A stretch of 32,000 nucleotides of DNA from Candidatus Saccharimonadota bacterium (GCA_016700135.1 CP065004.1:480001-512000), one strand, 5' to 3'; shown: positions 347 through 29,746, counted from the first letter of the stretch. Notes: generated by a model not told the origin, from the letters alone. A program made the numbers and translations.

Positions 347-438
347 ACCGGATATACATAAGAGTATAACAGTTTTCACTTAACTTCTTTTTGATACATT
401 TTGATTGCTTGTAAATTGATGTTAATATGTTTATTATT

Positions 439-457
439 TGTGGATAAGTTATCCACA
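439..457. promoter_or_regulatory. Two perfect DnaA boxes in inverted orientation (TGTGGATAA g TTATCCACA)
   Basis: Read directly: 439-447 TGTGGATAA is the reverse complement of the consensus, and 449-457 TTATCCACA is the consensus itself. They lie 22 bp upstream of the probable dnaA ATG at 479. Confidence 0.75.
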
Positions 458-478
458 TTTTATTCGTATTGTTCACTT

Positions 479-1813
479 ATGGCTATGTTGTCGTCTTTTT
501 GGGATTCTTTTTTGGAATCAATATCCGAAAAAAAAGAAAAAAATCCGATATTCTTCTCCATTCTGAAAGATGCACAGCCAGTTGAGATTAAAGGAGATAT
601 CTTGGTTTTATCCTGCAGTAGCAACGGAGCTAAGAGTTATCTTGATAAAAAGAAAGAGGAAATTGAAGATCTTGTTTCCTTCAAGGCCGGTAAAAAAACT
701 TCCGTTGAAATCGTCATACAGGAAAAAAAACTTGACGGGACAGCCCCTCTTTTGGACTTTCAGCCCTCAAAAGAAGATATATATAGGAAGTCGGGTTTAA
801 ATATCAACTACAATTTTGAAAATTTTGCCGTTTCACCGACGAATCAAATTGCTTTTGCTGCCGCACAATCAGTTGCCAAGTCTCCGGGTGTATCCTACAA
901 TCCTTTGTTTTTTTACGGGGGGGTTGGGGTCGGTAAGACCCATCTGGCACAGTCTATTGCCAAAGTCATTCTTGACCAGGACTCGGAAAACAATGTGTAT
1001 TTCTGTTCCAGTGAGAAATTCATGAATGAACTCATTGAATCAATCCGTGCCAAGACTACTGCCCGATTCCGAAAGAAATACCGTTCCCTCAATCTTATTA
1101 TTGTTGATGATATTCAGTTTCTGGCCGGGAAACAAACCGTTCAGGAAGAGTTTTTTCACACGTTCAACAGTATTGTCTCTGCCGGCGGACAGGTGGTTTT
1201 GACATCTGACCGACCACCCTTTGAGATCAGGAATTTAGAAGACCGTCTTCGTTCCCGTTTCTCCGGCGGTCTTATTGTAGATATCCAACAGCCCGATTTT
1301 GAGCTACGCACCGCCATTCTCCTCATTAAAGCAAGAGAAAAGAACATCGCGATTGATATGGAAGCGGCAAAAATCATTGCCGAAACCGTCCTTGATACAC
1401 GTTCTCTTGAGGGGACACTTCTTTCATTGTACGCCCGAACCCTTACTTCCAACTTGAATCGCATAGATTTGAGTGTTGTTGAAGATTTTTTCCATGCGAA
1501 AACAGAACACGTCAAAAAAAGAATGTCTCCGCAGGATGTCATTAAAACCGTTTGTTCTTTTTACAATATAAAACAGTCACATATTAAGGGCGCAACGAGG
1601 AAAAGTACAATAGCGCTCGCCCGTCAGATTGTGATGTATCTTCTCAGAACAGAACTTGATCTGAACCTTGAAGAGGTCGCATATCTTGTAAAGAGAAAGG
1701 ATCATACTACAGTTATTCACGCCATCAATAAGGTTCGTGAAAGAAGTATGAAAGATGATTCTTTCAGGCATGAAATTGAAATGATAACGAAGTCATTGCA
1801 GTCGTCAACATGA
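479..1813 (+). CDS. dnaA: Chromosomal replication initiator protein DnaA
   Basis: Walker A GGVGVGKTHL, IVDDIQFL (Walker B), the sensor/Arg-finger region and a C-terminal DNA-binding domain (ARQIVMYLLR...DHTTVIHA). The longest ORF starts at TTG 401 but would run through the DnaA boxes. ATG 479 (MAMLSSFWDSFL) is the more plausible start. Confidence 0.95.
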   Translation: MAMLSSFWDSFLESISEKKEKNPIFFSILKDAQPVEIKGDILVLSCSSNGAKSYLDKKKEEIEDLVSFKAGKKTSVEIVIQEKKLDGTAPLLDFQPSKEDIYRKSGLNINYNFENFAVSPTNQIAFAAAQSVAKSPGVSYNPLFFYGGVGVGKTHLAQSIAKVILDQDSENNVYFCSSEKFMNELIESIRAKTTARFRKKYRSLNLIIVDDIQFLAGKQTVQEEFFHTFNSIVSAGGQVVLTSDRPPFEIRNLEDRLRSRFSGGLIVDIQQPDFELRTAILLIKAREKNIAIDMEAAKIIAETVLDTRSLEGTLLSLYARTLTSNLNRIDLSVVEDFFHAKTEHVKKRMSPQDVIKTVCSFYNIKQSHIKGATRKSTIALARQIVMYLLRTELDLNLEEVAYLVKRKDHTTVIHAINKVRERSMKDDSFRHEIEMITKSLQSST

Positions 1814-1929
1814 TTTCCACACGTTATAAACACACGTTTTTTGCCGGTTTGTTTTGTCTTGAAAATCCCTTTTCTATTTTATACACTTATGCACAGCTCC
1901 TATTACTACTATTTTATATATAACTAACT
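1814..1929. other. dnaA-dnaN spacer with DnaA-box-like 9-mers and an AT-rich tract; candidate oriC segment
   Basis: 9-mers compared with the relaxed box TTWTNCACA: ATTTCCACA 1813-1821 (8/9), TTATAAACA 1824-1832 (8/9), TTATACACT 1879-1887 (8/9), TTATGCACA 1887-1895 (9/9). An AT-rich stretch follows at 1901-1929 (tattactactattttatatataactaacta). Confidence 0.4.
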
Positions 1930-3030
1930 ATGAAATTCACAATTGATAAGGACATCTTCTTCAATCAAATCAATACTGTCCAGAAATTTACCTCCGATAG
2001 ACTGAACACATCTGCAGCTCTGCAGGGAGTATATATACATATAGAAAAGAAAAAGATTCATTTTTATGCAACAGACCTCAATACTTACTGCCACACATCT
2101 TCGGATCTATCAGCAGACGAATCAATAGATCTTATAATCGAACCGAAAAAGATACTGGAGTTTGTTCAGTTTTTACAGCAGGGAGATATAAACATCACTA
2201 TAGAAAGCAACTCAATCGTCATCCAGCAGGAAAAAACTAAAGGAGCTTTTCCAGTCATTGTCGCTGAAGATTTTCCGTTGCCGCCCGTACTTAAGGAAGA
2301 AGCACAGGATGTGAAGCCTGAATTCTTACTTAATAATCTTCCGTTCCTCCTTTTTACCGCCTCGAGCGATGACGCCAGACCGGTTTTGACTGGGATAAAC
2401 TTTGTTGCTTCTGAGGAAGATCTTACTCTTGTTGCGACAGACGGCTTCAGACTTTCTTTGGTAAAAGAAAAAAGAAAAGGAACGTTTTCATCCATGATTA
2501 TTCCGGCCGATTTTTTGAAAGAGGTTATCAGATATGTCAGAGATGCAAAAACAGTATCTTTCACCTATTCCGAAAAAGAACACTTAGTATTGTTTAAAGT
2601 CGGAGAAACGGAGTTTTACTCACGTCTTATTGACGGAGAGTTTCCTCCCTACGAACGTGTCATCCCGGAAGAAAAGAAAGCAACAGCAGTTCTAAAAAAA
2701 GAGGATTTACTGAGAAATACGAAGCTTATTTCAATTTTTGCACGCGAATACTCGAACGTTATTATCTACGATTTCTCAAAAGACGGACTTGTTCTGTCTC
2801 CGAAAAAAGAAGCAAATGCGGACAACACAACTACGCAGGATATATCGTTTGACGGTGATCAAATCCGGGTTGCATTTAATTATAAGTATGTTGTAGATTT
2901 CCTCAATCATATCGATGCAGAAGAAATCGAAGTTGAACTGTTGAGATCAGATGCTCCGGTTGTCTTTAAAATTCCGAAGAACAATTCTTTTATTCATATT
3001 ATTATGCCGGTGCGCATACAGGAAGGATAA
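1930..3030 (+). CDS. dnaN: DNA polymerase III beta sliding clamp
   Basis: 366 aa, positioned right after dnaA. Clamp motifs present: ARPVLTGINF, ATDGFRLS, LIDGEFPPYERVIP, MPVRI at the C-terminus. Confidence 0.95.
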   Translation: MKFTIDKDIFFNQINTVQKFTSDRLNTSAALQGVYIHIEKKKIHFYATDLNTYCHTSSDLSADESIDLIIEPKKILEFVQFLQQGDINITIESNSIVIQQEKTKGAFPVIVAEDFPLPPVLKEEAQDVKPEFLLNNLPFLLFTASSDDARPVLTGINFVASEEDLTLVATDGFRLSLVKEKRKGTFSSMIIPADFLKEVIRYVRDAKTVSFTYSEKEHLVLFKVGETEFYSRLIDGEFPPYERVIPEEKKATAVLKKEDLLRNTKLISIFAREYSNVIIYDFSKDGLVLSPKKEANADNTTTQDISFDGDQIRVAFNYKYVVDFLNHIDAEEIEVELLRSDAPVVFKIPKNNSFIHIIMPVRIQEG

Positions 3031-3057: not shown

Positions 3058-4071
3058 ATGGACGCAAAAGATAAAACATTTATCGTAATTTCTCCCCGTT
3101 CCATTGCGCTTTTCACCCTGATTCCCCTGGCTCTGTATTTACTTTGGTCTGTTCGTGATATTCTGTTTTCCCTTCTTATCGCATTTATTATCATGAGTTC
3201 GCTGCGGCCGGGTGTTAACTATTTCGTCTCGAAAAAAGTACCGAGAGGTCTTTCTATCGGATTGGTTTTTTCGGCATTTATTTTGTTTTTTCTGTCTCTG
3301 ATCTCAATTATTATCCCTCCGATTGTATATGAAACAACCAATTTGATAAGAAGCCTTCCGTTTATCCTGGAAGAAGTGGCACCGTCGCTGGAAGAGTATG
3401 TTGATTTATCTAACGCTACTTCATATATCCCGAATCTTACGAACAACCTGTTCGGTTTTATATCAGGACTCTTTTCTAACACTCTTTTTGTTATTGCAAC
3501 ACTCTTTTTTAGTCTTTATTTTTTGATTGAGGAAAATCTGGTGAATAAGTTCCTTCATCGGTATATCTCAAAAGACCGTGCCGATAAAATTTCCGCAACT
3601 TTTTCGAAAGCAGAGATGAGAATGTCATCATGGTTTTGGGGAGAAATAACCCTCATGACAGTTGTCGGAGTGTTGACATACCTGGGACTTGTTCTGATCG
3701 GAGTTAAGTATGCCCTTCCCCTGGCGGTGCTTGCGGGGCTTTTGGAGGTTGTCCCGAATATCGGTCCCGTGATTTCTTCTATTCCGGCTATCATTATCGG
3801 ATTCAGCAGTTCGTATTTTGCCGGGTTTTCCGCCCTTGCCCTGTACATTGTAGTACAGCAGCTTGAAAACAACCTTATTGTCCCGATGATTATGAAAAAA
3901 GCGGTCGGCATAAACCCAATTCTTACTCTTCTTGCCCTTCTTCTCGGAGGCCGTATGGGAGGCGTTTTGGGTGTTCTTCTGGCTATCCCGATTCTCCTTT
4001 TTACGGAAACCATTGTTCAGGAATATCTTCATCCCCATATTGCAAAGCAGCGGGACCAACAACCTGCGTGA
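3058..4071 (+). CDS. AI-2E family transporter (PerM/YhhT-like permease)
   Basis: 337 aa, polytopic. Family-typical LLEVVPNIGPVISSIPAIIIG and QQLENNLIVPMIM segments. Confidence 0.85.
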   Translation: MDAKDKTFIVISPRSIALFTLIPLALYLLWSVRDILFSLLIAFIIMSSLRPGVNYFVSKKVPRGLSIGLVFSAFILFFLSLISIIIPPIVYETTNLIRSLPFILEEVAPSLEEYVDLSNATSYIPNLTNNLFGFISGLFSNTLFVIATLFFSLYFLIEENLVNKFLHRYISKDRADKISATFSKAEMRMSSWFWGEITLMTVVGVLTYLGLVLIGVKYALPLAVLAGLLEVVPNIGPVISSIPAIIIGFSSSYFAGFSALALYIVVQQLENNLIVPMIMKKAVGINPILTLLALLLGGRMGGVLGVLLAIPILLFTETIVQEYLHPHIAKQRDQQPA

Positions 4072-4076
4072 AAACT

Positions 4077-4100
4077 GCGTTAATATTGCGGGAAATATTG
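4077..4100 (+). repeat. Recurrent intergenic motif, copy A (GCGTTAATATTGCGGGAAATATTG)
   Basis: Begins 6 nt after the stop of the 3058..4071 gene. Shares the 11-mer TTGCGGGAAAT with copy B and the CGTTAAT...TGCGG layout with copies C and D. Confidence 0.4.
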
Positions 4101-4124
4101 TAAAAAAGGTTACTATAATAAACC

Positions 4125-4814
4125 ATGCCTAAGAATAATTCATTACTTGAGACCGTCAATCTTCTTTCGGAACTGGTCGTATTTGAGACATATGATTTCA
4201 GTGAATTTTTGAAGAAGCTGATGAAACTGATCCTGAAATGTATTCCGGCAGATTCGTGTCTTATTTATTTTTATGACACGGCGCATCAGGAACTTATTCT
4301 CACGGCATCAAAAAAACCGCACGGCAAGCTTTTGGGCAAAATCAAGATGAGACCGGGTGAAGGCATAACGGGCTGGGTCGCCGAACACAAGAAAACGGTT
4401 GTATTGAAGAAAGAGGCCTATAAAGATAGTCGTTTTAAACAATTTAAAGAGTTGCCTGAAGACAAATATGAAGCATTTCTTTCTGTTCCAATTATCGATA
4501 AGTCAGGTGTTGTCGGCGTAATTAATATTCAAAACATTTCACCTTATGAGTTCGAGAAAGAACAAATCGTGATATTAGAGGCTATGGTAAAAATAGTTTC
4601 ATCGGCATTTCAGAAAGTCGCTCTGGAAAGACAGGTGTCTACACTTCAGACAAAACTGGAAGACAGAAAAATAATTGACAAAGCAAAGGGCATTCTTATG
4701 AATAAAAATACATTATCAGAAAAAGAAGCATATGCGGTCATAAGGCGAGAAGCAATGAAAAAACGGAAAACAATGAGGGAGATTGCAGATGCAATTCTTC
4801 TTGTATGGGGGTGA
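4125..4814 (+). CDS. GAF-domain / ANTAR-domain RNA-binding regulator
   Basis: The N-terminal ~160 aa look GAF-like (GEGITGWVAEHKKTVVL, SVPIIDKSGVVGVINIQN). The C-terminal ~55 aa match the ANTAR pattern (RKIIDKAKGILMNKNTLSEKEAYAVIRREAMKKRKTMREIADAIL). Confidence 0.85.
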   Translation: MPKNNSLLETVNLLSELVVFETYDFSEFLKKLMKLILKCIPADSCLIYFYDTAHQELILTASKKPHGKLLGKIKMRPGEGITGWVAEHKKTVVLKKEAYKDSRFKQFKELPEDKYEAFLSVPIIDKSGVVGVINIQNISPYEFEKEQIVILEAMVKIVSSAFQKVALERQVSTLQTKLEDRKIIDKAKGILMNKNTLSEKEAYAVIRREAMKKRKTMREIADAILLVWG

Positions 4815-6071: not shown

Positions 6072-6072
6072 T

Positions 6073-6093
6073 GCGTTTAATTTGCGGGAAATG
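6073..6093 (+). repeat. Recurrent intergenic motif, copy B (GCGTTTAATTTGCGGGAAATG)
   Basis: Begins 2 nt after the stop of 4836..6071 and lies immediately upstream of the putative glnA -35. Confidence 0.4.
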
Positions 6094-6098
6094 TCTGC

Positions 6099-6126
6099 TT
6101 GAAATTTTCTTCCTCATGGTTATAAT
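6099..6126 (+). promoter_or_regulatory. Sigma-70-like promoter upstream of glnA (TTGAAA-16 nt-TATAAT)
   Basis: TTGAAA at 6099-6104 and TATAAT at 6121-6126. Implies a ~170-nt leader before the glnA ATG at 6303. Confidence 0.5.
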
Positions 6127-6302
6127 CTAAGTATTCTTCTCATTGGCGAGAACTCTTCTTTACTTCACAGTGTTTGTGAAATCCATGACAGGACAATGAT
6201 GCTCCTTCAAATCAGTGAACGCGTTTTTGTGTTTGCGGGTTTTTATTAATACATTTCATAAACACGTTCACTTGTACGACCGCGAACACAACCACTATTA
6301 CT
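6127..6302 (+). promoter_or_regulatory. Structured glnA 5' leader (several hairpins with alternative pairings)
   Basis: Hairpin 1: TTCTC 6137-6141 / loop ATTGGC / GAGAA 6148-6152. Hairpin 2: TTCAC 6164-6168 / loop AGTGTTT / GTGAA 6176-6180. Long hairpin: GTGAAC 6215-6220 + GTGTTT 6229-6234 pairing with AAACAC 6260-6265 + GTTCAC 6266-6271. The arms are repeated, so mutually exclusive folds are possible. Confidence 0.35.
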
Positions 6303-7709
6303 ATGATTACGTTAGCAGAAGCAACATCTTTGATTAGGTCAAAAGAAGTTGCGTTTATAGACCTGAAGTTTACCGATATTCGCGGAGTATGGCAGCATAT
6401 GACCATTGCTGCAAGGGACTTCAATACAGCGATAAAAGACGGCATCGGGTTTGACGGTTCAAGTATTCGCGGCTTTCAGGATATATATGACAGCGATATG
6501 CTTCTTTTTCCCGATCCGACAACAATCTTTAAAGATCCTTTTTTTGAAAAAACACTCTCATGTATCTGCGGTATCGTCGATCCGATGACCGGGAAACCGT
6601 TTGAAAAAGACCCTCGCCATATCGCAAAAAAAGCAGAGAAATATCTGAAAAAATCAGGATTCGGAGACACGTCATATTGGGGTCCTGAGGCGGAGTTTTT
6701 CCTCTTTGATGTCCTCAATATTCATTTCTCCCCCTACAGACAGCTTATTGAACTCGAAAGCTCTGAAATTCCTGCAGATGACTTTGATTCCCGATCTCCC
6801 GGTGACGGATATCATATGGCCATGAAGCGGGGATATTTCCCGGCTGCTCCCTTTGACAAACTGCAGAGATTCAGATCGGAAATGGTTGAAATTCTTGAAA
6901 AAATCGGCATAGAAGTTGAAGTGCATCATCATGAAGTTGCAGCAGCAGGACAGGTGGAAATTGATCTCAGATACGATACTCTGGTAACAATGGCTGACAA
7001 ACTAATGATTTACAAGTATGTAGCACGGAATCTTGCGAAAGTACACGGGCTCGTTGCCGTCTTTCTCCCCAAACCGATTTATGGAGATAACGGATCCGGT
7101 ATGCACACACACCAGAGCATCTTTAAAAACGGAAGCAATGTATTCTTCGACAAAAAGGGATACGGAGGACTCTCTCATCTCGGGCATGCGTATGTAGCCG
7201 GATTACTGACGCATATTGACGGTTTACTGGGGGTGACAAATCCTACGGTCAATTCCTATCGCAGACTTGTTCCCCATTTTGAGGCGCCGACAGCCGTTGC
7301 TTTTTCAGCCAGAAACCGCAGTGCGGCAGTAAGAATCCCGATGTATCATGCTTCGGAAAAAGCAAAACGGGTAGAATTCCGTTGTCCCGATCCGACCTGC
7401 AACCCGTATCTTGCCTTTGCGGCTCAGCTTGTCGCCGGTATTGAGGGTATGGAAAAGAAAATGGATCCGGTAAACATGGGATTTGGACCGTATGACAATG
7501 TAAATATCTGGGAAACCGAAAATATCCGTCAGACGCCGAAAACATTGTTTGAAACACTTGATGCTTTTGAGAAAGACAGCGTGTATAAAAAATCAGGCGT
7601 TTTCCCAAAAGAAATTTTGGAAAGCTACATTGGGCTAAAACGCGATGAAGCAACGGAAGCCATGATGTATCCTACTGTTTCAGACTTTTTCTTTTACGGA
7701 GATATGTAA
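6303..7709 (+). CDS. glnA: Glutamine synthetase, type I
   Basis: 468 aa. FDGSSIRGF, GPEAEFFLFD, HHHEVA..GQ.EID, KPIYGDNGSGMHTHQS and NSYRRLVPHFEAP are classic GSI motifs. Confidence 0.95.
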   Translation: MITLAEATSLIRSKEVAFIDLKFTDIRGVWQHMTIAARDFNTAIKDGIGFDGSSIRGFQDIYDSDMLLFPDPTTIFKDPFFEKTLSCICGIVDPMTGKPFEKDPRHIAKKAEKYLKKSGFGDTSYWGPEAEFFLFDVLNIHFSPYRQLIELESSEIPADDFDSRSPGDGYHMAMKRGYFPAAPFDKLQRFRSEMVEILEKIGIEVEVHHHEVAAAGQVEIDLRYDTLVTMADKLMIYKYVARNLAKVHGLVAVFLPKPIYGDNGSGMHTHQSIFKNGSNVFFDKKGYGGLSHLGHAYVAGLLTHIDGLLGVTNPTVNSYRRLVPHFEAPTAVAFSARNRSAAVRIPMYHASEKAKRVEFRCPDPTCNPYLAFAAQLVAGIEGMEKKMDPVNMGFGPYDNVNIWETENIRQTPKTLFETLDAFEKDSVYKKSGVFPKEILESYIGLKRDEATEAMMYPTVSDFFFYGDM

Positions 7710-21368: not shown

Positions 21369-21909
21369 CTCCTTCATCAGTGGTGACCAGATACCCGTCG
21401 AGTTCTTTTGCGAGCATAATGAGGTCAAAATCAGCCTTGCTGTCGATGGTTCCCGTGCGTGTGGCATTCCGATACCGTTCACGCAGTTTGGTAAGAATCT
21501 TACCGCAGGCAATTTGAAACTCTTTATGCGGCAGTACCTCTTTTCCCATAAACATTTCTGCTGTGTGTATAATCTCTTCTTCCGCAACTTTCATGGCGCG
21601 GTAGGCTCTATCTCTATAATCTTCGATAAGACGCTCAATAATGACTGCCGAAACAGACTGTTCTGACGTTCTGGGAGATTTAACCGTAACAGAGCCAAAG
21701 AGCGATTTTAGCAACGGATCGTCCGGACTGTCAAAAAAAGATGTGATTTCTTGGACTATTGTAGGAGGCACGACGATTTCGACCTCCCCATCAGGAGCTT
21801 TTTGTACTGCCCTGACTATGTTTTTTACAATATCTGCCGTAGTCTCCCCTAGACCGAGTGCGGCTTCCATGTTGAAGAACAAATTTGTGTCAATAATATA
21901 GCTTTTCAT
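21289..21909 (-). CDS. PIN-like protein of the UPF0278 / RNA-ligase-partner family = HARP-like (homolog of Aquifex RNase P 38, RNA-free RNase P) candidate
   Basis: 206 aa. N-terminal MKSYIIDTN (Asp7) and a C-terminal block LRERYRNATRTGTIDSKADFDLIMLAKELDGYLVTTDEGVTYWARLLGVK. This closely parallels my recollection of the Aq_880/HARP C-terminus (LREKYR...G.LDSK.D.D...LA.ELDG.LV..DEG...WA...G.K). The size and the helical insertion between the PIN halves also fit. Confidence 0.6.
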   Translation of the reverse strand: MKSYIIDTNLFFNMEAALGLGETTADIVKNIVRAVQKAPDGEVEIVVPPTIVQEITSFFDSPDDPLLKSLFGSVTVKSPRTSEQSVSAVIIERLIEDYRDRAYRAMKVAEEEIIHTAEMFMGKEVLPHKEFQIACGKILTKLRERYRNATRTGTIDSKADFDLIMLAKELDGYLVTTDEGVTYWARLLGVKEMSSSVFGKKMQEYL

Positions 21910-22418: not shown

Positions 22419-22865
22419 ATGAAGTGTCTTTTTTGTCAACACACGAATACTGAAGTCATTGAAACGCGCGTTTCAGAAAACAGAACCGCTATCAGAAGGC
22501 GCCGTTCTTGTCCGCAGTGCAAGAAAAGATTTACGACATATGAACGCATAGAGGAGCTGCCGATACTGGTTATCAAGAGAGATCTGAGAAGAGAGCGTTT
22601 TGACAGAAAGAAACTGATGAACGGCATATTTAAAGCAGTAGGGAAGACGACGGTGACAGCAGATCAGGTCGAAGATATCGTAAACCAGATAGAACAGGAT
22701 ATTACACAGGCAGGCAAAACGGAAGTCAGCAGCAGTGAGATAGGTAGTATGGTTGCTTACCAACTGAAAAACATAGATAAGATCGCGTACATCCGGTTTG
22801 CATCAGTGTTTAGAAGATTTGTCGATGTTGAAGAGTTTGAATTGGAGCTGAGAAAGCTCTCATGA
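22419..22865 (+). CDS. nrdR: Transcriptional repressor NrdR
   Basis: MKCLFCQHTNTEVIETR....RRRR.C..C..RFTTYE zinc ribbon followed by an ATP-cone. Confidence 0.95.
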   Translation: MKCLFCQHTNTEVIETRVSENRTAIRRRRSCPQCKKRFTTYERIEELPILVIKRDLRRERFDRKKLMNGIFKAVGKTTVTADQVEDIVNQIEQDITQAGKTEVSSSEIGSMVAYQLKNIDKIAYIRFASVFRRFVDVEEFELELRKLS

Positions 22866-22908: not shown

Positions 22909-25314
22909 ATGAAACTGACAGGTGTTTCAGAGAAAGTATTCCTTGACAGATACTCTCTCAAAGACATAAAGGGCAATCCAGTTGAAGCACAACCGGATGA
23001 GATGTGGCGCCGTATCGCCAATGCTGTCGCCGAGCAGGAAAAGCCTTCACAGCGCAAGAAATGGGCTGATGCATTCTATAATGCAATGGAGGATTTTAAG
23101 TATGTTCCCGGAGGCCGCATTCTTGCAGGCGCAGGTACAGGCTATTCGGTAACTTTTTATAACTGTTTTGTGATTCCGTCTCCGAAAGATTCCCGTGGAG
23201 GAATTCTGAATACATTGGGAGAAATGATTGAGATTATGGCTCGGGGAGGCGGTGTCGGAATTAACCTTTCCACACTTCGACCACGAGGGGCACGGGTTGA
23301 GAAAGTAAACGGATTTTCTTCGGGGCCCTGCAACTGGGCAGAGATATTCTCACTTGCTACTAAAGATATTATTCAGCAGGGCGGTACCCGTCGCGGAGCT
23401 CTTATGCTTATGCTCTGGGACTGGCACCCTGATATCGAAGAATTTATTACTGTAAAACAAGATCTTTCACGCATCAACGGAGCAAACCTTTCCGTTGCCG
23501 TTTCAGACTCCTTTATGGAAGCAGTCAAGAAAGATGAGGACTGGCCTCTTATTTTCCCGGATAAAAATGATCCTGAATATGACGAAGTGTGGGACGGGGA
23601 TATTGAGGGCTGGAAAGCGAAAGGAAAGAAAATCAAAGTGTATAAAGTTGTCAAAGCAAGAAAGATCTGGGATCTTATTGCTGAAGCTGCCTGGAAGTCT
23701 GCAGAGCCCGGAGTAGTGTTTATGGAGAGATACAACAAAATGCACAATAACTACTACTGGAATAAAATCATCTGCGTAAACCCATGCGGAGAAGAAGGTC
23801 TTCCGGGATGGGGAGTATGTAATCTTGGTTCTATCAATCTCTCAGCCTTTGTCAAAGGATATGAGGTTGATCGTGCCGGAACATTTGATTTTGAGGAACT
23901 TCGAAAGACAGTACGCATTGCAGTAAGACTCCAGGACAATGTTGTAGATATGGATCCGTACGTGTTTCCGGGGATAAAGAAGACCCAGCTTGAAGGAGAA
24001 AGAAGAATTGGTCTTGGGACTATGGGGCTCGGGGACACTCTTATTAAGCTTCATATTCGTTACGGTTCAGAAGAGTCTTTGAAGTTCATCGAGAAAGTTT
24101 ACAAGATGATTGCACATGAATCATACCTTGCATCTTCTGATAATGCGAAAGAGAAGGGGTCCTTCAAGAAATTTGACGGTGCTAAATTTGTGAAGAGCGG
24201 TTTCATGAAAACTCTTCCTGCCGAAATCAGAAAGAAAATAAAAAAAGACGGCATTAGAAACTCAGTGCTTCTCATGCAGGCTCCCACGGGATCAACTTCC
24301 CTTATGGCCAGTACAACATCAGGAATAGAGCCTGTATATGAATTTGAATTCATAAGGCGAGATCGTCTTGGAGAACATGCCATACGGCATCATCTCTATG
24401 ATGAATGGTACAAAAAACATGAAGCTGAGATGAAGGCCGGAACAATCAAAAGACCGGAGTACTTTGTATCAGCAAATGATCTTTCTCCTGAAGATCATGT
24501 CATGGTTCAGGCTGTCATTCAGAAATATGTTGATGCATCAATTTCGAAGACTGTCAATGCCCCGACCACACACACGGTTGACGATGTAAAAAGACTCTAT
24601 ACATTGGCATATGAACAGGGATTGAAGGGTATTGCCTATATGAGAGAGGGATCCCGTGCCGGTGTTCTTGAGAGAAAACCTGATGCCAAAGCTGCGCCGG
24701 ACAAAGCAGAACAGCCGAAAATGCAGATACCGACAGTAAAACCGCGACCGATGGTTGTTCACGGATCGACATACAAAATCGATACACCGGTCGGACGGGC
24801 ATATGTCACCATAAATACCAACGGCAATAATGAACCACATGAAGTATTTATGACAATCGGTAAAGCAGGGACAGATGTATTTGCCATGGCAGAAGGGCTG
24901 GGTCGTATGATCTCTATGTACTTTAGATCTACCGCTCATCTTCCGGCTGAGGAGCGCATCAAAAACGTCATCAACGAGCTTCAGGGAATCGGCGGCGGGC
25001 GCACGATGGGATTTGGAAAAGAACGTGTCCGCAGTATGCCTGATGCCGTAGCCAAAGTCTTGAAAATGCATTTTGAGTACTTGAATAAACAACGAACAGA
25101 GACTCAAAACGGCAACGGCCATACAACAGAAGTGAAGCTAGTGAGTGAAGTCGAACAGCCGGCACTTCTTGCCGAACAAGGTCAGCAACTGGTTGCTGCT
25201 GCAGACGTACCGAAAGAAAAGCATTTTGACATCTGTAAAGAATGCGGTCAGGCATTACTTGCACGTGAAGAAGGTTGTGCAAAGTGCTATGGCTGCGGTT
25301 ATGCAGAATGTTAA
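22909..25314 (+). CDS. nrdJ: Class II (adenosylcobalamin-dependent) ribonucleotide reductase
   Basis: 801 aa. Active-site VNPCGEEGL, the TGSTS segment and ISKTVN. The C-terminal Cys-rich tail is CKECGQALLAREEGCAKCYGCGYAEC. Confidence 0.95.
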   Translation: MKLTGVSEKVFLDRYSLKDIKGNPVEAQPDEMWRRIANAVAEQEKPSQRKKWADAFYNAMEDFKYVPGGRILAGAGTGYSVTFYNCFVIPSPKDSRGGILNTLGEMIEIMARGGGVGINLSTLRPRGARVEKVNGFSSGPCNWAEIFSLATKDIIQQGGTRRGALMLMLWDWHPDIEEFITVKQDLSRINGANLSVAVSDSFMEAVKKDEDWPLIFPDKNDPEYDEVWDGDIEGWKAKGKKIKVYKVVKARKIWDLIAEAAWKSAEPGVVFMERYNKMHNNYYWNKIICVNPCGEEGLPGWGVCNLGSINLSAFVKGYEVDRAGTFDFEELRKTVRIAVRLQDNVVDMDPYVFPGIKKTQLEGERRIGLGTMGLGDTLIKLHIRYGSEESLKFIEKVYKMIAHESYLASSDNAKEKGSFKKFDGAKFVKSGFMKTLPAEIRKKIKKDGIRNSVLLMQAPTGSTSLMASTTSGIEPVYEFEFIRRDRLGEHAIRHHLYDEWYKKHEAEMKAGTIKRPEYFVSANDLSPEDHVMVQAVIQKYVDASISKTVNAPTTHTVDDVKRLYTLAYEQGLKGIAYMREGSRAGVLERKPDAKAAPDKAEQPKMQIPTVKPRPMVVHGSTYKIDTPVGRAYVTINTNGNNEPHEVFMTIGKAGTDVFAMAEGLGRMISMYFRSTAHLPAEERIKNVINELQGIGGGRTMGFGKERVRSMPDAVAKVLKMHFEYLNKQRTETQNGNGHTTEVKLVSEVEQPALLAEQGQQLVAAADVPKEKHFDICKECGQALLAREEGCAKCYGCGYAEC

Positions 25315-25690: not shown

Positions 25691-26843
25691 TTACCGAAGT
25701 ACTTGACTCATCCATACTCTGATCCTGAAGATCCAGCCTTCAAAATAACTCTCAAGCTGGCGGTCATACTTTTTCACGGTATCAAATCCTTCCTTAGCTT
25801 TTGTAAGCGGTTTCTCAGTCGCCTGATCAAGCTTTTGTACATTTTCGGGATTTACTACTTCACGTGCCAGTTCTTTCGGCGATTTAATTTCGATAGGTTC
25901 TGATACTTGTTGCGGGTCAGAGGGATTCGGATCTTTCCGTCCGAACCAGGGAAGTGAGAAAGGACTTGATTCGGTCGGTTGAGGATCGTAGGGATTTCCG
26001 GGCATACCGGTCCATGTCGGGGCAGGTGTCCATGTAGGTACAGGTGTCCATGTTGCGTTTGGATCCGCCGGAGGAATAGTATTTGTCGGTTGTCCCGGCG
26101 GGACAGTAGGCTGATTTGTTGTTCCCGGTCTGGTCGTCGGTGTGGGCTGATTGGGCCTCAATGTGGCCGTTGGCGGTTGTGGTCTTGGAGTTGCAGTCGG
26201 CTCATTCGGTCTTGGAGTTGCTGTCGGCGGTGGAGTGGTGGGTCGCGGGGTATTGGTGGCAGTAGGCGGCGGGGGTGCCTGTGTGTTTGTCGGAGTAGGA
26301 TTTCCTCCCGGCATATTCGGAGCAAGACCGTATTTGGGGACCTTATTCCCGTTTTCATCTTTCTTTACACATCCGTATTCGTTAAAACCACCGGGAAGTC
26401 CCCAGTATTTACCACAATCTCGTTTGTCGCCTGAAAGCAAATCACAGTAATTCGGGTGACAGTGCCATCGTTCCATAAAACAGCAAAATCTCGAATCCTG
26501 ATATTGGACCATGTCTGCGCAGCAATCCGGCTGATGTTGAGAACAATAGTAACGTTGATACTCTGTTGTTGGGGGGCCAACGGGGCTTATTCTGATCACA
26601 GACATATGAATATCGGTCATCATCGTAAGTATTTTGCGGTGTTTTCGGTTTGCGCGTGCAGCCATCTGGGTAGCAGATATCCTGATCATCACAGGTGCAC
26701 TCTTCAACTGATTCAGATGCTTTGCTGGCGGTCGTAAAGAGCTTTCCTCTTTCGGAAGTGTATTGAGAAACGGAAATACTGATAATTACGGCAATGATAA
26801 AAAGAATGCTAACCATCATAAGCCGAACATCTGTTTTTTTCAT
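25691..26843 (-). pseudogene. Cys-rich, Pro/Thr-rich secreted surface protein split by a single-base frameshift in a C6 (plus-strand G6) tract
   Basis: Track ORF 26442..26843 supplies the signal anchor plus a Cys-rich start (MKKTDVRLMMVSILFIIAVIISI...ECTCDDQDICYPDGC...YVCDQNKPRWPP). Track ORF 25691..26707 continues the Cys-rich domain in another frame from ...PPTTEYQRYYCSQHQPDCC. The frames swap at G6 26571-26576. Removing one G gives ...RWPPTTEYQRYYC... and one ~383-aa protein. Confidence 0.7.
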
Positions 26844-26897: not shown

Positions 26898-27419
26898 ATG
26901 AGCATAACGACAAAAACAGGAGACAAAGGAGAAACCGCGCTTTTCGGAGGTAAAAGGGTAAAAAAATACGATCCGCAGGTGGAAGCTTATGGTTCTGTGG
27001 ATGAGGCAACCTCTTTTATCGGATCGGCAATTGAAGCGATTTCCGATAAAGATGTGACAGGCCTCCTTACGAATGTGCAGCTTACTTTATATATTCTTAT
27101 GGCACATTTGTCCGGATACAAGATGGATCGCAATAAAGTCGAAGATCACTTAAAAAGTATAGAAAAGGAAATTGTCCGTCTTGAAAATACGTTGCCGAAA
27201 CTGACCAGGTTCATTCTTCCGCAAGGGAGCGAGGAGGCATCACGGTTGCAGATAGCACGTGCGATGGTTCGATCCTCAGAGCGGCGGGTAACGGCGTATG
27301 TAGACCGTAAAACAGAACAAACTGCCGATGATATGATGGCGGTACAGTATCTCAACCGCCTTTCCGATCTCTTGTTTATGTTAGCCAGGAAATATACTCC
27401 GGAAGAACACCTTACCTAA
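26898..27419 (+). CDS. pduO: PduO-type ATP:cob(I)alamin adenosyltransferase
   Basis: TKTGDKGETALFGGKRV.K.D..VEAYGSVDE at the N-terminus and RAMVRSSERR later on, both family signatures. Confidence 0.9.
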   Translation: MSITTKTGDKGETALFGGKRVKKYDPQVEAYGSVDEATSFIGSAIEAISDKDVTGLLTNVQLTLYILMAHLSGYKMDRNKVEDHLKSIEKEIVRLENTLPKLTRFILPQGSEEASRLQIARAMVRSSERRVTAYVDRKTEQTADDMMAVQYLNRLSDLLFMLARKYTPEEHLT

Positions 27420-27744
27420 GCTCATCAATTTTAGCTGCCATAATAAAATCATTAAGACTTAAGCCTTGAATTTTCTGAGTCATAAGATCAATGAGTACAT
27501 TCCGAAAATTATGGACATAGATATCCGGATGATGCCCCTCTTCTTCGGCCAGTTCTGCAACTTGGTTCACGAAATCAATAGCCTCTCGGAAGTTTTTGAA
27601 AGTAAAATCACGACTGATTTGTCTTTCATCTACAACGCTCCAATCCTTGTGCAGTTTTCCGAGGTTTTCCATAATTGCCTCCCTTTTCATAGGAGGTGTA
27701 TCAATTGAGCAGGCTTCACATTTTTTTTGAGTAAGATTATTCAT
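27412..27744 (-). CDS. 4a-hydroxytetrahydrobiopterin (pterin-4-alpha-carbinolamine) dehydratase
   Basis: 110 aa. W......I.R.F.FKNF..A..FVN.VA.LAEEEGHHPDI...........L.T.....L...DF..A..ID pattern. Confidence 0.9.
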   Translation of the reverse strand: MNNLTQKKCEACSIDTPPMKREAIMENLGKLHKDWSVVDERQISRDFTFKNFREAIDFVNQVAELAEEEGHHPDIYVHNFRNVLIDLMTQKIQGLSLNDFIMAAKIDELR

Positions 27745-27805
27745 AAGTATGGGTTGATTTTTAATGCATGATGGTGTAATTTTACTATACGTTAAAAATA
27801 TAAAT

Positions 27806-27957
27806 GCTTGGTAAGCATCATCCCGCCGAGTAAGGGAAAAGATGCTAAGTATCAGGGAATGAGGTGTAATTCCTCAACTGTGCCGCAGCGGTAATTCCGA
27901 TTTTGATCGGATAAGTCCGAAGACCGACCAAGTCCTCTACCCCGAGCAGGGATATCT
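27806..27957 (+). promoter_or_regulatory. Cobalamin (AdoCbl) riboswitch plus expression platform
   Basis: The conserved core CAGGGAATGAGGTGTAATTCCTCAACTGTGCCGCAGCGGTAA (27853-27894) parallels the E. coli btuB leader core (AGGGAAUCCAGUGCGAAUCUGGAGCUGACGCGCAGCGGUAA). The B12 box AAGTCCGAAGACCGACC (27913-27929) parallels btuB AAGCCCGAAGACCUGCC. Supporting helices: P1 CTTGGT 27807-12 / ACCAAG 27927-32; AGCATC 27814-19 / GATGCT 27841-46; GAGG 27861-64 / CCTC 27872-75; TCCGAT 27896-901 / ATCGGA 27906-11. Confidence 0.85.
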
Positions 27958-29241
27958 ATGTCACCATCTGTCGTCGAATGCGAGACATGCGTCTTGCCAG
28001 AACAAGAACCGCAAATTATCGGAGAATTGCCTCTCGAGAGTACTTTCCCTCTTGATCCGGAGATAGAGTTTCGGGCGATAAATCGCACAAAAAGTGAAAC
28101 AGACCCGGATTACCTAACTCCCGAACAGCTCAACTACTACCAGAGGGAAAATTTAGTCTGTTTTTTATGTGAATTTGCAGGTAAAGTACCGTACAAAAAA
28201 ATTCCGGGAATTGTTACCGATACCGGGAGACTGAAAATCTGTAATATGGATGTCCTGCAAATGGCTGAAAAAGCGGCAGATATTGCGGGAAAAGGATCAA
28301 GGGAAGAGAGCGAACTCATCGGCTGGCAAAAAGCAATTGATTCTATACAATGGGGAGCAAACAGAGTCGATATCGTATCTCCACCGGCAATTGCGGACTA
28401 TATGCTGACATTTTCTCTGTATATTGATGATTATGACCCCAGAATCGGCGGGCGGCCGGTCAGTCAGATTGTATCAAGGCGCGATGAACAGATGGGTTCT
28501 CTCGAGGTAAGTCGCGGAATTTATCAGAATCTTGCTCAAAACGCCGGACAGCATTATGATATCGCTCATTTTTCCGGTCCGGAAGACTTTATTACCAATC
28601 CAATAGTTCATCATACAGAAGACAGTGACAGTCTTGCCCGTGCTGTCACCAGCATCGGTGTCGATGAGAATGACATCGTTTACTCCGAACGATTTGAGCA
28701 GGAAGTACGTGAAGTGCTTGAGCCGATGATACAGGAGTATCTGCGTCAGGTAGACGAACTGTCCTATTTAAGCAGCAGCGAAAAGCATGAATGGCCGTAT
28801 GAAGAAAAAAAACATGCATTAGATGCTCATTTACATACCATGTTCAGTTTTGCAAAAAGGATCGGAAGAGAACTGCAGACGAATTACTGGAATACCGATG
28901 TCGGACAAACCGTTCGTGATATCATGAAACTGCAAACGATTGATCCCATGCAGTATTATGCACATGCAGAAGCAATCCGGCAATCGGAAAGAGCCACAAT
29001 TACAGGAGGCACCTCCTGTCCCAGTCTGAATTCTACATCTGCGATGGAGAGCTTATCAGGGTTTAGTGAATCCGGCATGTCCTTCAATACGGCAATTCAG
29101 AGTTTTATGCAAGGTGAATCAAAAAGTAAAAAAACACTCGAATGCACCTGTCCGAATTGTGATAAAAAAGTTGCGGCCCGAATTGAAAACAATAAAATCA
29201 CCTGTCCCAACTGCAAGGCATCGGCACCGTATAAATGCTAA
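27958..29241 (+). CDS. Uncharacterised 427-aa soluble protein with N-terminal Cys cluster and C-terminal zinc ribbon (riboswitch-controlled)
   Basis: The ATG lies 26 nt after riboswitch P1. No TM segments. Cys clusters: CETC...CFLC (N-terminal) and CTCPNC-x14-CPNC-x7-C as the very C-terminus. I recognise no family. Confidence 0.7.
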   Translation: MSPSVVECETCVLPEQEPQIIGELPLESTFPLDPEIEFRAINRTKSETDPDYLTPEQLNYYQRENLVCFLCEFAGKVPYKKIPGIVTDTGRLKICNMDVLQMAEKAADIAGKGSREESELIGWQKAIDSIQWGANRVDIVSPPAIADYMLTFSLYIDDYDPRIGGRPVSQIVSRRDEQMGSLEVSRGIYQNLAQNAGQHYDIAHFSGPEDFITNPIVHHTEDSDSLARAVTSIGVDENDIVYSERFEQEVREVLEPMIQEYLRQVDELSYLSSSEKHEWPYEEKKHALDAHLHTMFSFAKRIGRELQTNYWNTDVGQTVRDIMKLQTIDPMQYYAHAEAIRQSERATITGGTSCPSLNSTSAMESLSGFSESGMSFNTAIQSFMQGESKSKKTLECTCPNCDKKVAARIENNKITCPNCKASAPYKC

Positions 29242-29290: not shown

Positions 29291-29746
29291 ATGTCAGACA
29301 CAAAGAACGTAACCGACAATCATACATCGATAAAGCACCTGATTGATGACCACCATGCTTCAAATCAGAGTTCTCATTCCAAAGAGGGTGAACCTGCGCG
29401 GCCCCGTTCGGTTGAGAAGCTGCGGGATGAAGAGTATATTGCACCGGAAAACGAACCGACAATAGAAGACAAAGAACTGGAAAAATATATTGAGATTGAA
29501 CGTGATGTTCCGGAGATTCACCCTGATCTTAAAAAAGCGGGACTGCAGGCGCTGGACACGACATCTCTTGATCCGAAACAGAGGGTGCGGTTGCCTATTG
29601 CAGATGAAGAGATTATGAACGGACTGGATGAACCGTTGTCATCTTCCTTCCGTTGGCTGGCGGAGTTTGCTCTATTCATGCTCAAAAGGGCACATCTTGC
29701 CCTGAAACGGGTGCACGGAAAAGTAGTAAGAGTGATTCAAAAGTAA
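29291..29746 (+). CDS. Uncharacterised 151-aa protein with a His-rich N-terminus and an amphipathic C-terminal helix
   Basis: NHTSIKHLIDDHHASNQSSHSKE has 6 His in 23 residues. The C-terminus is FRWLAEFALFMLKRAHLALKRVHGKVVRV. It lies 49 nt downstream of the 427-aa gene. Confidence 0.5.
   Translation: MSDTKNVTDNHTSIKHLIDDHHASNQSSHSKEGEPARPRSVEKLRDEEYIAPENEPTIEDKELEKYIEIERDVPEIHPDLKKAGLQALDTTSLDPKQRVRLPIADEEIMNGLDEPLSSSFRWLAEFALFMLKRAHLALKRVHGKVVRVIQK

Follow-up and report, generated by a model that had tools for sequence, protein, structure and literature searches.

We analysed a 32,000-nt stretch of DNA filed under Candidatus Saccharimonadota bacterium (GCA_016700135.1, CP065004.1:480001-512000; hereafter the window, with positions counted from its first nucleotide), and in particular a cobalamin riboswitch in the leader of a gene, which we call X, that starts at position 27958. 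The riboswitch lies in a 213-nt divergent spacer, as had been noticed in an earlier examination of the same DNA that used no database searches (the sequence-only reading). On one side of the spacer is a pterin-4a-carbinolamine dehydratase gene on the minus strand (27412-27744; PF01329, 99.4 bits), and on the other is X on the plus strand (27958-29241), which codes for a 427-aa protein with a C-terminal CxxC...CxxC zinc ribbon. A gene for a conserved 151-aa partner protein, Y, lies 49 nt downstream of X on the same strand (29291-29746), and the two genes are probably co-transcribed. The X protein has the same sequence as one annotated as hypothetical in a Candidatus Roizmanbacteria bacterium, and the host is a member of Candidatus Roizmanbacteria, in the candidate phyla radiation (CPR).

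A Cobalamin-family RNA in the leader of X

We ran the covariance models of Rfam 15 over the whole window and found a single match, to RF00174 (Cobalamin), at 27793-27946 on the plus strand, with a score of 55.8 bits and an E-value of 1.8e-11 by cmscan. The sequence-only reading had proposed such a search as a check on its claim; the gathering score of the model is 31.5 bits, and the alignment spans the full model (positions 1-189). RF00174 outscores RF01689 (AdoCbl-II) and the other models of its clan in the window, and a permissive scan of 501 nt (27600-28100) returned RF00174 again, with an E-value of 2.8e-13, and no other notable match. The RNA belongs to the Cobalamin family of Rfam (clan CL00101). 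The riboswitch alone is ordinary: it is a clear instance of a very widespread family, and any Rfam-based annotation would find it.

The conserved core of the family is present at 27855-27894 and 27913-27929, and consists of the GGGAA junction, the P4 T-loop GGUG..AA.UCC, the string CUG..CCGCA.CGGUAA, and the B12 box AAGYCCGAAGACC. This core is invariant in the leaders of orthologous genes, and its strings are near-identical to those of the Escherichia coli btuB leader. The core CAGGGAATGAGGTGTAATTCCTCAACTGTGCCGCAGCGGTAA (27853-27894) and the B12 box AAGTCCGAAGACCGACC (27913-27929) given by the sequence-only reading are both found at those coordinates, and the two btuB strings that it gave for comparison occur verbatim in the E. 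coli genome (NC_000913.3).

All the aptamer helices that it had listed are also present (P1 and hairpins at 27814-27846, 27861-27875 and 27896-27911). P1 is formed by GCUUGGU (27806-27812) and its complement ACCAAGU (27927-27933); within it, 27807-27812 and 27927-27932 make a perfect 6-bp duplex, which the pair G27806-U27933 lengthens. P2 is a peripheral hairpin (27814-27846) with the stem AGCAUC/GAUGCU and an inner CCC/GGG, and it appears both in the minimum free energy (MFE) fold and in the RNAalifold prediction. The Rfam alignment places the 5' arm of P3 (C.GG) at 27853-27856, with its partner CCG at 27924-27926. The hairpin listed as 27861-27875 is P4 with the T-loop of L4 (27860-27876, UGAGG-UGUAAUU-CCUCA), in which 27860-27864 pairs with 27872-27876. 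P5 (27879-27887, UG/CA) carries the loop L5, whose sequence UGCCG (27881-27885) is the same in all 22 leaders that we compared. P6 (27889-27919) has a base of CGG/CCG (27889-27891 and 27917-27919) and a distal hairpin, UCCGAU-UUUG-AUCGGA, at 27896-27911. Its peripheral extension is almost gone, with 61 positions of the RF00174 model reduced to 10 nt in the window. The B12 box AAGUCCGAAGACCGACC (27913-27929) covers the 3' strands of P6 and P3 as well as the first part of the 3' strand of P1; it compares with AAGCCCGAAGACCUGCC in btuB, and it is almost invariant among the orthologues.

Beyond the aptamer is a mini-hairpin, CCC-CGAGCA-GGG, at 27940-27951, that is, 7 nt past P1 and 6 nt ahead of the AUG. 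The sequence-only reading had seen this hairpin, with coordinates that were off by one (27941-27952). It is P13, the regulatory helix. The nucleotides of its loop L13 (27943-27948) are complementary to those of L5 except for A27945, which would be bulged. Its 3' strand contributes to the sequence GGGA (27949-27952), 5 nt before the AUG, which is a candidate Shine-Dalgarno (SD) sequence or ribosome landing region. From G27932 to the ATG at 27958 is 26 nt, in agreement with the spacing reported earlier.

Conservation and covariation among orthologous leaders

We gathered the genomic context of relatives of X, from 82% down to 23% protein identity. Every related locus that has upstream DNA contains a cobalamin riboswitch directly before the X homologue and on the same strand, and these loci represent 22 independent lineages. 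RF00174 or RF01689 scores at or above gathering in 19 of the 22 (leaders L001-L010, L014-L022, L024-L031, L033 and L034, in our numbering of the loci). The cores of L011 and L012 give a sub-gathering Rfam match of 25.5 bits, and the same core can be recognised by eye in L013 and L032. A custom covariance model made from 11 orthologous leaders recovers all 22 lineages, with scores of 29-164 bits, and has no other match within 214 kb. The sequence-only reading had the element driving the gene at 27958, and this is supported by its orientation and distance, by the lack of a terminator in between, and by the riboswitches that precede the homologues.

The region around P13 is conserved in all leaders, close and distant, as CCCCG-N(1-2)-GCAGGGA, in which only N differs (A, U, C, AA or UA). 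The GGGA is invariant except for GGAA in L005, and in the orthologues it lies 2-9 nt 5' of the start codon.

By comparison, the size of the orthologous aptamers ranges from 68 nt (L033:5908-5975) to 227 nt (L022:2201-2427, RF00174), with other leaders such as L010:314-412, L005:5782-5989 and L015:1-170 making up the series. P2 and the P6 extension have been gained or lost independently, even between the window and L015, whose X proteins are 77% identical. P2 is variable in length and missing from L010 and L033, and the distal part of P6 ranges from nothing in L033 to approximately 95 nt in L005 and L015. Both L010 and L033 score best with RF01689. Because orthologous leaders score as one family or the other, and P2 and P6 come and go among them, RF00174 and RF01689 form a continuum at this one locus.

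Some leaders have, between P1 and P13, an additional small hairpin that the window lacks (L019:1661-1680, L020, L026:2415-2435, L010:413-430 and L009:5960-5980). Its sequence varies by lineage and its stem is kept–for example, CCGC-UUUCAU-GCGG, or CUGUUUGA-UGUA-UCAAACAG. In L010, the open reading frame in the database (L010:338-1795, P0008, 485 aa) runs through the riboswitch, with the RF01689 match (L010:314-412) inside; the real start is the ATG directly after GCAGGGAAU, giving MRTAQVER..., as in the relatives. Two short contigs from metagenome-assembled genomes labelled 'uncultured Gammaproteobacteria' also contain the riboswitch and X (L014, CAZDDM010000087.1, and L015, CAYMVU010000068.1). 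Their X proteins are 99% and 77% identical, respectively, to the Roizmanbacteria gene product, and these contigs are probably mis-binned CPR.

To count covariation we used a structure consisting of the Rfam-type helices plus a kissing loop between L5 and L13 (43 pairs), and two alignments: an 11-leader MAFFT alignment that was built blind to structure, and a 22-sequence alignment fitted to the structure model. In the structure-blind alignment 89.7% of cells are paired. Shuffling gives 78.4%, with none of 500 shuffles attaining the real figure, and sliding the partners gives 29-44%. Double changes are seen in 18 of the 43 pairs. RNAalifold, as an independent prediction on this alignment, finds P1, P2, P4, P13 and the distal hairpin of P6, and half of the pairs it predicts (19 of 38) have double changes. 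In the fitted alignment 88.2% of cells are paired (72.3% in shuffles), with double changes in 30 of the 43 pairs.

Among the individual helices, P1 has double changes in all 7 of its pairs in the fitted alignment and in 3 of the 7 in the structure-blind one. P2 covaries. Two of the three P3 pairs covary in the fitted alignment, and its two G-C pairs are almost invariant. Four of the five pairs in P4 covary, with 98-99% of cells paired, as do four of the five in the distal part of P6 (in the structure-blind alignment), and at the base of P6 one G-C pair is replaced by A-U in L011 and L032. One C-G pair in P13 becomes U-A in L011 and L013. P1, P2, P3, P4 and P6 are thus backed by compensatory changes. 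The sequence-only reading had asked for covariation of its helices in orthologous leaders, and they do covary in an alignment made without reference to structure.

Expression platform and proposed control of X

Between the aptamer and the ATG at 27958 there is no terminator-like site, and P1 is followed by the AUG after just 25 nt; for lack of such a site, a mechanism based on an intrinsic terminator was rejected. Also rejected was an MFE hairpin over the start codon (GGGAUA...UGUCACC), because it is not kept in the orthologues. The 43-nt platform folds at -5.1 kcal/mol, which is no better than shuffled sequences. P13, with its 3 bp, is therefore unstable by itself, which fits a stabilisation that depends on ligand.

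The complement of L5 (UGCCG) is CGGCA, which is L13 minus its variable N. The family consensus of L5 is UCCCG (PMC10327014), and the C-to-G change in L5 of the window is matched by a C in L13. Regulation of btuB requires a kissing loop of five pairs between L5 and L13, and L13 of the env8 riboswitch is also bulged (PMC10327014). A layout with P13 close behind the aptamer is described for class II cobalamin riboswitches (PMC6158498).

From the conserved P13 near the AUG, the complementarity of L5 and L13, the lack of a terminator and the instability of P13, we infer a mechanism like that of env8 and btuB. When a corrinoid is bound, L5 (27881-27885) would pair with CG-A-GCA of L13 (27943-27948), making five pairs with A27945 bulged, and this kissing loop would stabilise the weak 3-bp P13 (27940-27951). 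The GGGA strand of P13 and the adjacent region downstream as far as the AUG, which we propose as the ribosome landing site, would then become inaccessible. Initiation of translation of X would be blocked, which is an OFF switch by occlusion of the ribosome-binding site (RBS), as in env8HyCbl and E. coli btuB. Without B12, P13 would melt, and X and Y would be translated. We estimate the probability that 27793-27951 on the plus strand is a functional cobalamin riboswitch in the X-Y leader, predicted to turn translation off through L5-L13 pairing and RBS occlusion, at roughly 0.85.

The distant orthologues L011 and L013 have a different arrangement. Their CGAGCA element precedes a strong SD (AAAGAGGAGG) by approximately 100 nt and is part of two mutually exclusive folds. 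In one fold, CUCUCGAGCAAGG...CCUUCUCGAGAG forms a long hairpin and the SD is free; in the other, CCUUCUC pairs with GAGGAGG. Each fold is the MFE structure in one of the two sequences. If CGAGCA were captured in P13 and by the kissing loop, the fold that sequesters the SD would be favoured, which would again be OFF logic. These longer platforms (L011:5885-6006 and L013:5893-6006) have z-scores of -4.7 and -3.2, and they contain a U-run after GGGAAAAG.

Several points weigh against translational repression by RBS occlusion, or against parts of the evidence for it. GGGA resembles a canonical SD only poorly, and SD sequences seem to be used little or not at all in this genome; the occlusion may be steric instead of a sequestration of the SD. 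In L010 there are only 2 nt between GGGA and the AUG. A scan of the plus strand upstream of the aptamer with promoter consensus sequences yielded no promoter that passed. The fitted alignment leans towards the structure to which it was fitted, and its register in the distal part of P6 is one off, which is why that helix was judged on the structure-blind alignment only. The positions of P5 and the kissing loop are invariant, so they show no covariation within this set of leaders, and some other constraint could explain their conservation. Some corrinoid riboswitches activate their genes (PMC10327014), and the OFF direction here is a proposed one. The whole case for a response to ligand and for regulation is comparative. 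Members of class II cover a broad range of ligand selectivity (PMC6158498), and the RNA in the window may prefer either adenosylcobalamin (AdoCbl) or methyl- or hydroxocobalamin.

As regards the upstream region, we noticed by eye a TTGATT at 27754-27759 followed by TGTAAT/TAATTT, which is kept in close relatives. We do not claim it as a promoter.

The X-Y gene pair, its neighbours and related systems

A word-indexed homology search for X found only 12 relatives. By exhaustive profile search we found approximately 250 cluster representatives at E <= 1e-3, of which 140 are at E <= 1e-10, and nearly all are 380-480 aa long. A further homology search with a 72-sequence profile of X returned only proteins that were already known, and a scan of genome contigs with an alignment found only 3 close relatives; the wider taxonomic range of X rests on synteny. 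Neither X nor its 72 relatives have any match in Pfam or NCBIfam apart from sporadic zinc-ribbon matches, and a profile search of PDB with X found only eL43-like zinc ribbons, at the C-terminus. The AlphaFold model of X made from the 72-sequence alignment is confident, with a pLDDT of 88.2 and a pTM of 0.82, and Foldseek found no neighbour for it in PDB (best E-value 0.09, TM at most 0.17). Weak PAS/GAF/TagF-like Foldseek matches, with a probability of at most 0.54, were not taken as evidence. Conserved in X are residues E72, R115, E116, E119, S141, Y148, P215, Y261, G351 and C354, the four cysteines of the zinc ribbon, and the motifs ENLxxFLxEFAG, SRExxE, SPPKxADY and GGSxCP. Y has no match in Pfam, NCBIfam or PDB; its conserved features are NHTPI, SKEGEP, HPDLKKAGLQ and a C-terminal amphipathic helix, RWLAE...HGKVVR.

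Upstream of the spacer, on the plus strand, are genes for NrdR (22419-22865; TIGR00244), for the class II AdoCbl-dependent ribonucleotide reductase (RNR) NrdJ (22909-25314; TIGR02504 NrdJ_Z, 565 bits, cutoff 399.95), and for a PduO-type cob(I)alamin adenosyltransferase (26898-27419; PF01923, 166.9 bits; TIGR00636, 150.7 bits, cutoff 108.45). X is followed by Y, a thioredoxin gene (minus strand), and genes for a Xer recombinase and RNase H. Nearly all loci share the arrangement NrdR–RNR–(variable gene)–adenosyltransferase–leader–X–Y: the riboswitch almost always comes directly after the adenosyltransferase gene, and Y follows X with few exceptions. The pterin-4a-carbinolamine dehydratase gene is not part of this unit, because it is missing from some orthologous loci (L003 and L005). 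Within the window we see no genes for the biosynthesis of B12 or for its transport. With NrdJ and the adenosyltransferase encoded here, the organism makes its DNA precursors with AdoCbl and adenosylates a corrinoid that it imports.

Two divergent lineages have other genes close to the leader. In L034 a DUF4430 gene (L034:1044-1505, plus strand) lies between the adenosyltransferase gene and the leader, and in L031 (1163-2022 on the minus strand and 3529-4152 on the plus strand) genes for DUF4430 and for the membrane protein DUF6580 are divergently upstream and a nitroreductase-family gene is in the place of Y. DUF4430 is the C-terminal domain of transcobalamin-type B12 binders (PMC4350170). The products of the DUF4430, DUF6580 and nitroreductase genes are candidate partners in uptake or reduction.

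Between the RNR and adenosyltransferase genes is a gene on the minus strand (25691-26843) for a Cys/Pro/Thr-rich protein with an N-terminal membrane anchor, which has no Pfam match and whose position is kept in most related loci. It is frameshifted near 26554-26559: residues 1-95 of its 373-aa homologue in L001 are in one frame, and residues 97-373 are in another. It is either a pseudogene or the result of an assembly error.

The window begins with dnaA-dnaN (401-3030), and in several contigs the block from the riboswitch through X, Y, the thioredoxin and Xer genes to the RNase H gene is within a few kb of dnaN-dnaA (L009:11459-13344, L010:5775-7614 and L034:6125-8793), so the cluster in these genomes is close to the region of the replication origin. 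We found 29 start regions in the window (e.g., at 21909, 30385, 31267 and 4125) without an SD, and in many of them a TATAAT-like box precedes the ATG by 6-10 nt. This pattern suggests that mRNAs of the window are mostly leaderless, an idea of the sequence-only reading that we judge plausible, and that the riboswitch-controlled gene is among the few with a real leader. Another leader is that of glnA (6303-7709), at 6072-6302, with a TTGAAA-17-TATAAT promoter at approximately 6100-6128 and then about 170 nt with several hairpins. It has no Rfam match even at E <= 1. The glnA gene is two genes downstream of a GAF-ANTAR regulator (4125-4814), and control of its leader by ANTAR is possible.

Cobalamin riboswitches normally repress genes for corrinoid acquisition or salvage, or for enzymes that bypass the need for B12. 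Because B12 riboswitch regulons are of this kind, and because X and Y are tightly linked to the adenosyltransferase gene and occasionally have DUF4430/DUF6580 neighbours, we favour a role for X and Y in the acquisition or processing of a corrinoid or in its hand-over to the adenosyltransferase. We put this forward tentatively, at slightly less than even odds, and it is the weakest inference in our explanation. Weighing against it, X and Y lack membrane segments and any recognisable cofactor-binding domain, and their link to B12 consists of regulation and synteny. With the same reserve, X and Y may be a hitherto unrecognised corrinoid-handling system that binds B12, processes it or passes it on, with a fold not present in PDB, in apparent CPR hosts of the Microgenomates type that import B12 for a class II RNR.

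X and Y could instead be regulated as described above and provide a B12-independent bypass for times of B12 scarcity, such as an alternative deoxynucleotide route. Riboswitch-repressed genes do include B12-independent isozymes, and metE and the class I and class III RNRs are under B12 riboswitches in other bacteria. NrdJ, in the same cluster as X, is also the only B12 enzyme visible. However, X resembles no RNR, kinase or nucleotide-metabolism family, and it is tied most tightly to the adenosyltransferase gene and, in L031 and L034, to the uptake-like DUF4430/DUF6580 genes. Handling of the cofactor fits these neighbours better, and we regard a bypass as rather unlikely. A different question is whether a real riboswitch acts mainly on transcription or RNA stability, by Rho-dependent termination or access of RNases, instead of on translation initiation. 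Translational cobalamin riboswitches are reported to add Rho termination and RNA decay to occlusion of the RBS (PMC6158498), and in a genome largely without SD sequences a mechanism centred on the SD is not assured. On the other hand, 27933-27958 contains no intrinsic terminator and leaves just the 25 nt already mentioned between P1 and the AUG, and in every orthologue P13 is right next to the start codon, as it is in switches that occlude the RBS. A mechanism mainly of the Rho or RNase type therefore seems improbable to us, and a secondary effect of Rho may exist beside translational control.

The direction of control could also be the opposite, with B12 turning X and Y on, for example if they were a chaperone that loads AdoCbl into the RNR. 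X does adjoin genes that use B12 and activate it, and an activating corrinoid riboswitch is documented for cobT of A. halodurans (PMC10327014). In an ON switch, P13 and an inhibitory structure must exclude each other, but the window has no competing terminator or sequestering helix, and in L013 the fold that frees CGAGCA is the one that sequesters the SD, which is OFF logic. We consider an ON switch very improbable. The idea that the element is a decaying relic, or resembles a riboswitch by chance, and has no present function can draw on the near-complete deletion of the P6 extension and is otherwise a general possibility only. It is effectively refuted by the E-value of 1.8e-11, by retention across 22 lineages despite protein divergence down to 23% identity, and by compensatory changes in P1, P2, P3, P4 and P6 together with an invariant regulatory hairpin.

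The value of the riboswitch is as a label that marks an unannotated and structurally unassigned pair of proteins in apparent CPR genomes. Riboswitch regulons have repeatedly led to missing transporters and salvage enzymes, and the regulated X-Y pair is a real lead to probable new players in B12 handling. These hosts, whose genomes are reduced, must scavenge B12, and X and Y are a concrete and testable candidate for its acquisition or processing in CPR. If they do have this role, the invariant riboswitch would be a regulatory signature that identifies the X-Y family. The series of leaders from 68 to 227 nt, with L5 and P13 constant, offers a natural way to examine the contribution of the peripheral elements. 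In a literature search we found no report of cobalamin riboswitches in CPR/Patescibacteria, and none on DUF6580.

Known proteins of corrinoid uptake and salvage that are regulated by B12 riboswitches include BtuB/BtuFCD, ECF-CbrT, BtuM and CblC-type enzymes. X and Y hold a similar genomic and regulatory place, behind a cobalamin riboswitch and beside an adenosyltransferase gene, but they match none of these proteins, have no predicted membrane segments, and in the case of X include a zinc ribbon.

Among known riboswitches, E. coli btuB (RF00174, class I, translational) shares with the window its family model, the core GGGAA–P4 T-loop–CUG...GCAGCGGUAA, and the B12 box AAGYCCGAAGACC. Its five L5-L13 pairs control translation (PMC10327014), and we propose the same for the window. 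However, btuB has a long P6 extension, a leader of approximately 240 nt, and an RBS hairpin separate from P13, whereas in the window P6 ends in a 6-bp hairpin, the leader is approximately 150 nt long, and P13 abuts the AUG. The L5 sequence of the window is UGCCG and not of the UCCCG consensus type, and its L13 is bulged. The window also resembles env8HyCbl and class II (Cbl-IIa; RF01689, AdoCbl-II), which are compact and have a bulged nucleotide in L13 (PMC6158498, PMC10327014); they lack the P6 extension, which is nearly gone in the window and varies widely among the orthologues. In class II, P13 comes straight after P1 and carries the ribosome-binding region (PMC6158498, PMC10327014), and P13 is in the corresponding place in the window. 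Class II is defined by a T-loop in J1/3 (PMC6158498), where the window instead has the 33-nt P2 hairpin between P1 and P3; and, unlike in class II, L6 of the window is a UUUG tetraloop that is not an obvious T-loop partner for L4. The architecture of the aptamer in the window is therefore between classical class I and class II, with the P2 hairpin kept and almost no P6 extension.

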